Below, piece after piece: positions 19,301-22,300 of a stretch of 64,000 nucleotides of DNA. How positions within the stretch are numbered: position 1 is the stretch's first letter; every line of letters starts with the position of its first letter. The stretch lies in assembly GCF_003018115.1 (NCBI RefSeq), contig NZ_CP027458.1. One strand, given 5' to 3'. Source of the stretch: Escherichia coli (GTDB lineage: Bacteria; Pseudomonadota; Gammaproteobacteria; Enterobacterales; Enterobacteriaceae). The position numbers are program-made.

Positions 19301-22300
19301 GTGGATGTCAGTTTAATCGTGCCATCCTGACCATTCAGACTCACAGCCTCCTTACCATCAGTCCCGTTAACTTTGATGCTGCCGGGCGCCTTATCCCCCA
19401 CAGTCAGGTCATTATTCAGGGATATTTTTAACTCTTTATCTCCATTGGCAGTGATTGCTGTGGTGGTGATATTGCTATCCCCGGATACTTTAATCGCCTG
19501 TCCAAGAGACTGTTTCACTTCCTGTCCCTTAGAGTCTTTCAGTGCGAAACCTGCACCTTGCATACTGGTGGATACACCATCAATTGCAGTTTTCAGGTCT
19601 GCAACACTGGCGGCATTTTTCATCTCTTTATCAGCATTCGTTAATGTCGAAAGAGCCTTACCTTCCAGTCCACTTGCCACGCCATTGATAACAACACCGC
19701 CGTTTTGCCCAGCAGCATTACCGCCTGACAATGTCAGCTTATGATCTTCGGATGAGAGCATTACACTTCCGTTATTTCCTTTTCCGTTCAGCTGAACACT
19801 GCTGAATGACGGAGTATCAACAACAGAAAACGTAAAGTTACCGTTATTTTGTTTCACGCTGAGATTTTTACCAGCTTTCAAAGTAACGGTCTCTCCGGGA
19901 TTAATTAACTCTTCCTGACCTCCCTCAAACCTGCCACCATTTTCACTGTCAGCTTTAATTTTCCAGCCAGACTGGTTTATGGCATCAGCAATGTTTTTCG
20001 CTGTAACAAGTTTATGCTCATCACCATTGTTTACTGTAATCTTCCCGTTACCATCATTTACAGGAAATGAAGCTATCTCTGCTGAAACTTCCAGTTTATT
20101 TCCATTAACGACACTGGTTTGTATTGGGCCTTTGCCTGCGATTTCGACATCGTCACCAAGATTCTTCGTCAGCGTCTTACCATCTCCATCTTTAATATTG
20201 ATAGCATCTTTTTTTATTTCATTTTTCAGAGTTGTTCCATCAATCGTCACTCCATTTTTGTCTACAGTAACATCTATATTACCGCTGCCTTTGACTGTTA
20301 CAGAGTTATCACTACCCCCATTCCCACTATTAATGGTAGCATTACCTCCTTTTTCATCCTTTAGCACCCACGCTGGATTTATGGCATCAAGGTCATCTTT
20401 CAAACGTTTAGCTATCACATATAGCTGACTCCCGTTGATAGCATCCGTACTTTGTTCTGAAATACTCCCAGCACCAACATTAACGATCTGGCGCTCATAT
20501 CCTTCTGAACCAACAGATACAACGGAAGAGGGAGTGCTTCCTGCAAACCCAGAATATGTAATTACCGACCCTTTATTGGAAACGATCTCAGCAGAGTTTA
20601 TGTGTTGAGCTTTCTTATCATTAGATAAGCTCCCCAAAGCAACATTATTCTTATCTATTGATACTTTCGCATTTTGTCCTAACGCAACCCCTCCAACCTG
20701 TAGAGCTTGGGCATTAAAACCTATGGCTGTAGAATTATTCTGAGTTGCTCTTGAAGCACTACCGACAGACAACGCATTTTCTGATTGTGCCAAGGCATTG
20801 AACCCTACAGCTGTTGACATATTTCCATTTGCCTCAGCTGTAGCCCCCAAAGCATTCGCAGAGACTCCCGAAGCTTTACTTATAGCCCCTAGACTTACAG
20901 ACAAGTCACCTTCCGCTATACCTCTGGAGCCAATAACAATGCTACCATGCCCTCTAGCCTCTGATGGGGAATAGTCATCAGGAATAACTTTTTCTCCATA
21001 TTTATGTCCATGTAATATTTTCAGGTCATCACCACCAATAGCAATAGCCCCCCAACCGCTGGCTAAGGTATCACCACCAATAGCAATAGACTGCTCTCTT
21101 TTCGCTTCAGCTTTTGGCCCAATAGCAATAGCCTCACCGGTTTTAACGTCCTCCATGTTTTCACCGGCCTTAGCACTTGTACCAATAGCAATAGAATTAT
21201 GCCCCCTTGCCTCAGGAGATAGATGGTCAAAATTAATTTTATTACCAGAATCAACTATAGTTACATTTTTAGTTGTTCCGATCTCAATGCTCTTCCAATT
21301 ATCACCATAAACCCCTTTGGAGTATTCTGTCTCATCAACCTCAATCTTTTCGTTATTTTGCGCAACACTGGCAAGAGGAACAAGAGTTGGGCTTAACGAT
21401 AGCAAAACAGCAAGACTAACCTTCGATCGATTAAAGCTCACTTTTACACTTCCTTTTTAATAGTATTTTTTTAATTGCAATACACATCTGTGAATTTTAC
21501 TTAAACGATTTAAACTTACGGTCAAGTACCCATTACTAATACTGTAATTTTCACAAATGAACTTTCTTGAACGCCCATCAACCAAATAAGCTCTCAAAGA
21601 CTCAAACACTTTTTTGCTACAGATTGGCGATATATCCATCAACAACAAGAAATGCTCCTCATCCATACAACCTGGAGTTAAAAGCGCACTCCCAAGAGCA
21701 GATCCGTTTTTTGTTTCGGAATAATGCGAACAGCTCATATCCCCCTCCTTTTTTAATAGGATAAATCCCTTCCCTCCCCCATAACAACCTTTTCACCGAA
21801 CAAAACAAACAAAACAAAACACCACGAACAACAAAAAAAACAAAAAAAACACCACAAAATAAAACAACAACAAAGAAAACAACCAAAAAAAGCAGCAGCA
21901 ACCATTGTATATCACAAACAAAAAAATAAACAAAAAATAACAAAAATCAAAAAACAACAATAATGTCTAAACCATGAGGTGAAAAATGAGGCAGCAGAAC
22001 CAATTGCATGCCATAATTATTATTCTGGGACAAAAACCCTCAATGCCACATGTATACGAAAACGCTCATCTATCCATAGTTAAAGTTATTTAATATTCTC
22101 CCATTAATTCACAAACTAAACACTTAAGAAAAAATCACCATTAAGCTTCACATGTTTTTATATGTTTTTTAGGATGCCATTGTAGCTAAATTACCCCAAA
22201 AAAACAGGAAGATTAGCCAGTCATAAAATAAATCCAATTAACAGGTAAAACAGTTGTTCCTAAACTTTTAAATTTACGTAGTTATATAGCCTATTCAGCC

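Follow-up and report, generated by a model that had tools for sequence, protein, structure and literature searches.

In the pap family of operons (pap, pef, sfa/foc, daa, and fae), the first gene of an adhesin operon encodes a PapB-family regulator and is preceded by an AT-rich upstream region of 300-400 bp. PapB and its relatives FocB and TosR oligomerise on AT-rich DNA, in concert with H-NS and Lrp (PMC5956150; PMC11316696). In pap, PapB oligomerises at its highest-affinity site, site 1, which lies between the papI start and the CRP site (PMC11316696). Between this site and the promoter, the pap DNA carries six sites for Lrp, two Dam GATC sites, and the site for CRP. Regulators of this family are also found in front of non-fimbrial adhesins, as is the case of TosR, which heads the operon tosR-tosCBDAEF (TosA) of uropathogenic Escherichia coli, binds AT-rich DNA 5' of its own operon, and activates or represses according to its level, again with H-NS and Lrp (PMC5956150). 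Here, we describe the control region of another operon of this type, which encodes a trimeric autotransporter adhesin and lies in a 64,000-nucleotide stretch of E. coli DNA (assembly GCF_003018115.1, contig NZ_CP027458.1), referred to as the window throughout. Upstream of its papB-like gene there is a tract of about 160 bp made almost exclusively of T and G on the sense strand (A and C on the plus strand), whose length and composition are kept across diverged plasmids while its sequence is not. This tract is probably regulatory promoter DNA, rather than a slippage switch or functionless DNA.

The locus of these Shiga-toxin E. coli (STEC) plasmids shares with pap the place of the regulator gene at the head of an adhesin operon, the AT-rich upstream region, a distal block that is similar to PapB site 1 and about as far from the promoter, and a T/G-rich sense strand 5' of the promoter (per 100 nt, 0.74 for pap and 0.77-0.83 for pef-like loci). 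However, contrary to pap, it has no pair of GATC sites 102 bp apart, no conserved CRP site, and no divergent papI-like gene; the intervening DNA is a tract of 85-93% T+G without conserved sequence, in which T-tracts are broken mostly by G; and the operon product is a trimeric autotransporter, not chaperone-usher fimbriae. With tos it has in common a PapB-family regulator encoded at the head of an operon for a non-fimbrial adhesin, whereas the TosA adhesin is of the RTX/type 1 secretion kind instead of type Vc, TosR is distant from PapB, and the text consulted on it (PMC5956150) makes no mention of an A/C-only tract.

Length, composition and sequence of the tract

A preliminary description of the window had drawn attention to a near-A/C-only tract of about 170 bp at 21796-21962, and the composition of these 167 nt confirms it: the plus strand holds 114 A, 36 C, 10 T, and 7 G (68/22/6/4%), that is, 90.4% A+C. 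This is the A+C maximum of the 64 kb, with a z of about 7.2 against all 167-nt segments (mean 0.511, standard deviation 0.055). The best 100-nt segment reaches 95%, the longest A/C-pure runs measure 27 and 33 nt, and the skews are at their extremes here (GC -0.75, AT +0.97). The tract lies 58-224 nt 5' of the papB-like ATG (21738, minus strand) and is, as described, upstream of a PapB-like/adhesin operon, in which an open reading frame (ORF) matching Pfam PapB is followed by a YadA-type adhesin gene; this operon is on the minus strand, so its coding strand is indeed G/T-rich. When conserved landmarks are used to set the limits, the tract covers 21788-21944, and the final 18 nt of the limits first proposed (21945-21962) are part of a sequence-conserved block. 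Delimited in this way (Table 1), the tract has an A+T content of about 73%, compared with 53% for the whole window. An artefact of assembly or sequencing is ruled out, since the locus is found on at least 56 complete STEC plasmids, including pO113, where it is also present in the original Sanger-era record. Among 5,426 complete E. coli genomes, the papB-like/tract locus occurs in 56, plasmid-borne in all of them and chromosomal in none.

The main evidence for function comes from the comparison of 13 diverged alleles, whose PapB-like proteins are 59-81% identical. All 13 have an A/C-rich tract at the same place. Its length stays at 157-160 bp, about 15 helical turns, in all but one of the 12 STEC alleles measured; the exception has 170 bp, one turn more (about 16). 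The sense-strand composition is equally stable, with T at 58-66% and G at 19-28% (means: T 0.65, G 0.21, A 0.08, C 0.06), and T+G adding up to 85-93% in the STEC tracts. The sequence, on the other hand, is nearly free: pairwise identity, at 0.60, is near the 0.48 that composition alone would give, exchanges between T and G make up 46% of the differences (16-20% in the flanking non-coding DNA), and the spectrum of differences matches random draws from the composition. The flanking non-coding DNA is itself 42-51% identical across alleles. Thus, the tract sequence has been almost randomised while its two-letter composition and its length have been held, which indicates selection on a bulk property. 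Such a pattern does not fit a decaying relic, and the earlier suggestion of a remnant of foreign DNA finds no support in a tract that keeps composition and length at near-random sequence and sits between conserved regulatory blocks. An element of about 160 bp with fixed length, a two-letter composition, and free sequence is unusual for E. coli.

Internally, the tract is repetitive in a loose manner. Tandem Repeats Finder reports degenerate repeats only, with periods of 5, 9, and 31, matches of 69-84%, and indels of 9-16%, and the longest homopolymer in the tract of the window is 8, runs of 8-11 being present among the tracts of the alleles. At 21799-21890 of the window, a unit of about 31 bp (AACAAAAAAAACAAAAAAAACACCACAA) is present in three degenerate copies; other alleles have different internal repeats, which suggests local duplication and turnover within a tract of constant total length. 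In the most diverged allele (L016, E. coli ABQGPS010000056.1, about 2930-3000), a hairpin rich in GC, GAGCGCAA-ACCA-TTGCGCTT, lies within the tract and a T-rich run comes after it, an arrangement that is terminator-like; here, the automatic PGAP annotation extends the papB-like ORF into the tract (130 aa). A coding role was considered and rejected: the start codon of the 50-aa ORF in the window is not conserved, and indels of 1-3 nt among alleles disrupt any frame. ORFs are open on both strands of the tract because stop codons require both A and T.

The tract is framed by sequence elements in a fixed order, which on the sense strand of the allele alignment reads block 1, block 2, tract, TTG-18-TATnnT, A-run, AGGAGG, and ATG (Table 1). 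Block 2 has the consensus GTTTAGA(T/C)ATTATTGTTGTTTTTTGATT over the alleles and can be read as three 9-bp units, each opening with a T/A triplet. Block 1 is probably a protein-binding site, and the two blocks may be a pair of such sites. Both blocks contain an A(C/G)AATAAT core, in inverted orientation. Two further interpretations were discarded: an RNA hairpin between the inverted AATAAT cores, for which no consensus pairs are predicted, and IHF or CRP sites in block 2, where inspection by eye gave only half-matches to either consensus.

Candidate promoters were sought with a position-weight matrix (PWM) based on classic compilations. Two sigma70-like sites recur on the sense strand at the same aligned positions: a distal one, TTGATT-16-TATnTT, with its -35 inside block 2, and a proximal one, TTGnnn-18-TATnnT, at the end of the tract nearest to the gene. 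In most alleles the distal site falls at one and the same position of the alignment, and in 6 of 10 it is the highest-scoring PWM match; it includes an A that is invariant within an otherwise A-poor tract. On the plus strand, the same scan over the alleles found no promoter at a common position, either upstream of the tract or within it.

Table 1. Features of the adhesin operon and its control region (window coordinates)
Feature	Position	Strand	Basis and remarks
Block 1, CAGAATAATAAT (sense strand)	22016..22027	-	Alignment; 54-55 bp upstream of block 2 in all alleles
Block 2, GTTTAGACATTATTGTTGTTTTTTGATT (sense strand)	21945..21972	-	Invariant alignment columns; includes the distal -35-like TTGATT (21945-21950)
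Distal -10-like TATTTT	21923..21928	-	16 bp after TTGATT; sigma70-like; its use would make the tract a 5' leader of about 177 nt
Composition-only tract	21788..21944	-	157 bp, from the distal block to the proximal -35-like TTG; sense strand T 65%, G 23%, A 8%, C 4%
Proximal -35-like TTGTTA	21782..21787	-	TTG invariant in all alleles; junction of the tract with G-rich sequence
Proximal -10-like TATCCT	21758..21763	-	18 bp after the -35; TATnnT nearly invariant; predicted start about 13 nt before the ATG
Shine-Dalgarno AGGAGG	21744..21749	-	Preceded by an A-run
papB-like regulator, 93 aa	21457..21738	-	Pfam PapB, E 2.3e-33; allele proteins 67-81% identical; RefSeq: PapB/FocB family regulator
Trimeric autotransporter adhesin (YadA-type), 1437 aa	17128..21441	-	Pfam YadA_head, YadA_stalk, YadA_anchor; homologue of pO113 LH0147
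Lipoprotein with BamE and OmpA domains	16300..17103	-	Domain matches; third operon gene, conserved position after the adhesin

Relationship to pap-type control regions

The conserved elements can be placed on the map of pap. Block 2 aligns with the papI-papB region of strain CFT073, in the part running into the left half of the CRP site. In this alignment, the TTTGA half of the CRP site is kept in the STEC alleles, whereas the TCACA half is not conserved in any of them. The distance from block 2 to the promoter is about 158 bp, against about 180 bp for its pap counterpart. What is absent is the switch itself. No GATC occurs within 600 bp upstream in the window and the pO113 alleles, in contrast to the four control loci (pefB, a Salmonella IncFIB locus, a fae-like locus of a sheep E. 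coli, and pap of CFT073), which all have GATC pairs 102 bp apart. Nor is there a papI-like gene: the divergent gene is lldP, and the intergenic ORFs of 43 and 52 aa have no Pfam match. By position and sequence, then, the control region appears to be of the pap type, with the T/G tract standing in for the CRP/Lrp/Dam module that separates PapB site 1 from the promoter.

A weaker bias of the same kind is present in those four classical loci, where patches of 100 nt reach a sense-strand G+T of 0.74-0.83, while PapB-family genes in other contexts show none (G+T 0.53-0.61). The closest parallels come from two K88(fae)-like fimbrial operons. On pRK1 of E. coli W (L027), whose regulator is 43% identical, upstream G+T reaches 0.86 over 160 nt; the tract (1246-1378) includes a perfect (T8G)3, and the region's best promoter, GGGTTGAGT-16-TAAAAT, forms its end (PWM 12.8). 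On pSalMiami (L031), G+T is 0.78, and the same arrangement ends in GGGTTGAAC-16-TAAAAT (PWM 13.4). The junction GGGTTGAG is common to these two plasmids and the STEC locus, and in the former two it is followed by a strong -10. Like the STEC locus, the two plasmids have a PapB-family regulator and a T/G-rich sense tract, here of 130-160 bp, that lacks GATC and ends in the -35 GGGTTGAG. They differ from the STEC locus in having fimbrial operons, another upstream block, and a leader of about 70 nt instead of about 13 nt. In the literature searched, no description of the pRK1 and pSalMiami tracts was found. The T/G-tract arrangement therefore extends beyond the autotransporter operon.

Possible roles of the tract

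The pap-type layout favours the proximal promoter as the equivalent of pBA, and the tract as duplex DNA upstream of it. We give a probability of about one half to the reading that the control region is a pap-type one without GATC, and that the tract, constrained in composition and length, is the DNA upstream of its operon promoter, where it probably offers H-NS, Lrp, and the PapB-like protein a rigid or bent platform. According to this model, the tract would act as a rigid, more or less bent duplex with a narrow minor groove, covering about -37 to -195 from the promoter. It would offer a platform of low specificity to proteins that oligomerise on such DNA, with H-NS and/or Lrp as silencers, while the PapB-like autoregulator would nucleate at block 2, which the tract would keep at a fixed distance of about 15 helical turns to the promoter. 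The level of expression would result from the balance between silencing and counter-silencing or auto-repression by the PapB-like protein, and not from Dam methylation or repeat slippage. This type of mechanism is supported by the known behaviour of PapB, FocB, and TosR (PMC5956150; PMC11316696).

Among the roles suggested in the preliminary description, that of a curved or H-NS-bound silencing region has survived best, and it is partly supported. With alleles pooled, T-triplets recur more often than by chance 9-13 bp and 20-21 bp apart (autocorrelation z up to 3), and the G positions have 2.4-fold power at 10.25-10.5 bp, pooled z values being inflated by the relatedness of the alleles. Of 13 tracts, 9 are predicted to be more curved than shuffled versions of themselves (mean z over all, -1.3 to -1.5). 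Strong curvature is predicted for several alleles and for the tract of E. coli W, and several tracts lie far in the tail of generic DNA; O91 pRM7190-2 and 2013C-4282 are among the alleles with predicted curvature. In end-to-end shortening, the tract of the window ranks between the 4th and 10th percentiles of the window. The recurrence of T-runs at about 10-12 bp and the curvature of most alleles beyond their shuffles speak for a curved region, whereas the window's own allele is weakly curved; curvature would be a tendency of these tracts, not a universal property. A regular array along the tract of PapB-type sites, which are 9-bp repeats with T/A triplets, was rejected, the spectral power at 9 bp being 0.56-0.70 of expectation and (T8G)2-3 units being only local.

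Intrinsically curved A-tract DNA 5' of promoters is a known target of H-NS, as in the thermosensing bend of virF, and kinetoplast-type CA5-6T tracts are another form of such DNA. The STEC tract resembles these in having A/T-tracts on one strand, often with C at the 5' side, a weak recurrence of T-runs at about 10.5-12 bp, and a position directly upstream of the -35; it differs in being weakly phased, much longer than typical bends, and scarce in TpA steps.

Several points weigh against the tract acting as duplex promoter DNA. The proximal promoter would leave a leader of only about 13 nt, which is unusually short, and the distal TTGATT-16-TATnTT, whose use would turn the tract into a transcribed leader, is equally conserved. 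The excess of G over C on the sense strand is more naturally attributed to a single-strand constraint than to properties of the duplex. Regarding curvature, which is a prediction of wedge models, periodicity examined allele by allele gives no peak above the tract's own shuffles; the allele of the window has a curvature z against its shuffles of only -0.35 to -0.83; and the pO113 group has values of about 0 or positive, i.e., it is not more curved than shuffled sequence. As for the proteins, the tract is poor in TpA steps, which H-NS prefers. Finally, the pap Lrp motif GnnnTTT has 10 matches in the tract of the window, compared with 9.5 +/- 2.5 in shuffles: the sites are many, but their number is what the composition alone would yield.

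The main alternative, although we regard it as unlikely, is that the tract acts as RNA. Transcribed from the distal promoter (start near 21916), it would form a U/G-rich 5' leader of about 177 nt on the papB-like mRNA and set its stability or translation. Having nearly no A or C, this leader would be free of folding, AUG, and stop codons, and, being C-poor and containing G, it would be the opposite of a Rho loading site; it would be rich in U-rich single strand of the type bound by RNase E, S1, or Hfq, and its U-runs could, for example, pair with the A-rich Shine-Dalgarno region. In addition to the position-conserved distal promoter-like element described above, this explanation is favoured by the predicted leader length, which is kept at 176-181 nt (190 in one allele), and by a sense RNA that is nearly structure-free in most alleles (between -3 and -13 kcal/mol per 160 nt, where the window has -39.5 +/- 11.7). 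RNA from the opposite strand of the tract is at about 0 kcal/mol, and the lack of structure in either orientation follows trivially from composition. A strand that favours G rather than C and T rather than A, with composition kept without sequence, is what a single-strand constraint predicts, and a leader explains it better than the duplex model. In the long leader, the Shine-Dalgarno sequence is predicted to be mostly paired, its probability of being unpaired being 0.01 in pO113-like alleles, versus 0.7-0.9 with the short leader.

However, on pRK1 and pSalMiami the T/G tract is upstream of the best promoter and ends at it, and block 2, which supplies the distal -35, aligns with a protein-binding region of pap. 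Besides, promoter-like matches come easily in T-rich DNA. The masking of the Shine-Dalgarno sequence and its temperature dependence differ between alleles and are reproduced by shuffled tracts, for which reason an RNA thermometer, or masking by U-runs, was rejected. A search of 21000-23200 against Rfam at E<=1 gave no match, and no RNA structure conserved across the alleles is predicted. A leader may coexist with a role of the tract as DNA, if both promoters are used.

A more speculative proposal, to which we assign a low probability, cuts across these two: the tract would be an element encoded by composition and length, not by sequence, and common to a subset of PapB-family operons. In a first version, the PapB-like protein (or H-NS/Lrp) would spread from block 2 along a 15-turn track of same-strand T-tracts to the promoter, giving concentration-dependent activation followed by auto-repression, without Dam methylation. 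In a second one, the encoded element would be a U/G-only leader free of structure, start and stop codons, and Rho loading sites. If true, either version would represent a kind of cis-element in bacteria whose definition is the use of only two letters on one of its strands.

That the tract is functionless, cryptically simple DNA, arising from T(n)G replication slippage and tolerated between elements that need only to be separated, seems improbable. It would account for a sequence that is almost unconstrained, for degenerate internal repeats that differ by allele (three copies of 31 bp in the window, T5-8G units in L006 and L008, and (T8G)3 in pRK1), and for the higher number of substitutions in the tract than in its flanks among closely related plasmids. 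But turnover by slippage should vary the length, which stays at 157-160 bp even where the flanking non-coding DNA has diverged as far as stated above; neutral decay should add C and A via transitions, yet the composition is held at saturation divergence; and a like tract recurs 5' of promoters in distantly related PapB-family operons.

It is still less probable, indeed very much so, that the A/C strand is the functional one, its C-rich, G-poor, unstructured RNA being a Rho-loading (rut-like) site or an Hfq (ARN)n site that stops antisense transcripts before lldP-lutABC. The plus strand does have a C:G ratio of 36:7 and a predicted structure of about 0 kcal/mol, and the tract does lie between divergent operons. 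Against this, no allele has a conserved plus-strand promoter upstream of the tract or within it; Rho prefers pyrimidine-C dinucleotides, of which there are few, most C being isolated between A; and in several alleles insertion sequence (IS) elements part the tract from lldP without the tract being lost.

Repeat tracts 5' of trimeric autotransporter genes are well known as contingency loci, examples being the TAAA repeats of nadA, the poly-G of uspA1, and the AGAT repeats of uspA2. The STEC locus likewise has low-complexity DNA 5' of a trimeric autotransporter adhesin gene, but differs in lacking perfect repeats and in the stable length of its tract within and between lineages. In this region, the eight pO113-type plasmids compared, which come from North America, Europe, Japan, and Australia, differ by nine substitutions and one 1-bp indel; seven of them have a tract of 157 bp, the other one of 158 bp. 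Slipped-strand phase variation switching the adhesin operon on and off, as suggested in the preliminary description, is thus hardly credible: homopolymer runs of 8-11 and one-base differences do exist (A8 in the window against A9 in pO104_H7; T6 against T7 within the pO113 group), but the latter are rare and could be homopolymer sequencing errors, the repeats are degenerate, variation is mainly by substitution, the length is clamped over deep divergence, and the tract is not between the -35 and -10 of either candidate promoter.

The operon, its neighbourhood and significance

The plasmid of the window resembles the large ehx plasmids of STEC negative for the enterocyte effacement locus (LEE), with 99.2% identity to pO104_H7 over 1.5 kb. 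The homologous adhesin of pO113, LH0147, has been described only as a putative novel trimeric autotransporter (PMC2681110); in the literature searched, its gene is named in just two papers, and no study of the control of this adhesin family was found. The lipoprotein gene follows the adhesin gene in all alleles for which flanks were retrieved. The OmpA domain of its product is of the peptidoglycan-binding type, and the protein is reminiscent of TpgA, the OmpA-like partner of the trimeric autotransporter AtaA of Acinetobacter. The gap between regulator and adhesin genes is 15 bp in the allele of the window. In pO113-like alleles (L004, 1795-2016; L009, L013-L018), 135-280 bp of non-coding DNA separate the two genes, which may represent a second, internal control point. 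A search for relatives of the papB-like subfamily, with one genome per species, confirmed none, and the subfamily is essentially confined to E. coli plasmids.

The regulator is matched twice on several plasmids. On pRM14516 (L006, 6400-6640), a second papB-like copy lies 1.2 kb 5' of the intact gene; it was discarded as a second module, being a fragment truncated by IS3 and without a tract.

On the other side of the tract, the divergent lldP-lutABC operon starts at 22841. The preliminary description had noted about 900 bp of AT-rich DNA without an ORF after the tract; this is roughly correct, with 65% A+T at 21963-22840, although the 43- and 52-aa ORFs, on the lldP-side strand, are present there. 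The 330 bp or so 5' of lldP (22510-22840) show 91-94% identity in 48 plasmids and are near-invariant among five alleles, the rest of the intergenic region being far less conserved. This conservation is probably regulatory and not coding, because allele 2014C-4587 has a stop codon within the 52-aa ORF (22640-22798). Also on the lldP side, a poly-C run at about 22367-22376 lacks two of the bases that it has in pO104_H7, which is due either to polymorphism of the homopolymer or to sequencing. Elsewhere in the window, the opposite compositional outlier is found at 44529-44631, with an A+C of only 21%: a G/T-rich segment, rich in G and in hairpins, with GC-rich inverted repeats on either side. It may be a feature of plasmid transfer or replication, unrelated to the tract.

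The operon encodes a large, uncharacterised trimeric autotransporter adhesin of the pO113 LH0147 family, carried by the ehx plasmids of LEE-negative STEC that cause human disease. The map of its control region is that of a pap-type region having lost the Dam/Lrp/PapI switch, and predicts that expression would be controlled by silencing through H-NS or Lrp, by auto-control through the PapB-like protein, and possibly by temperature. The tract, for its part, would be a clean system for separating the effects of DNA shape from those of single-stranded RNA in promoter regions.

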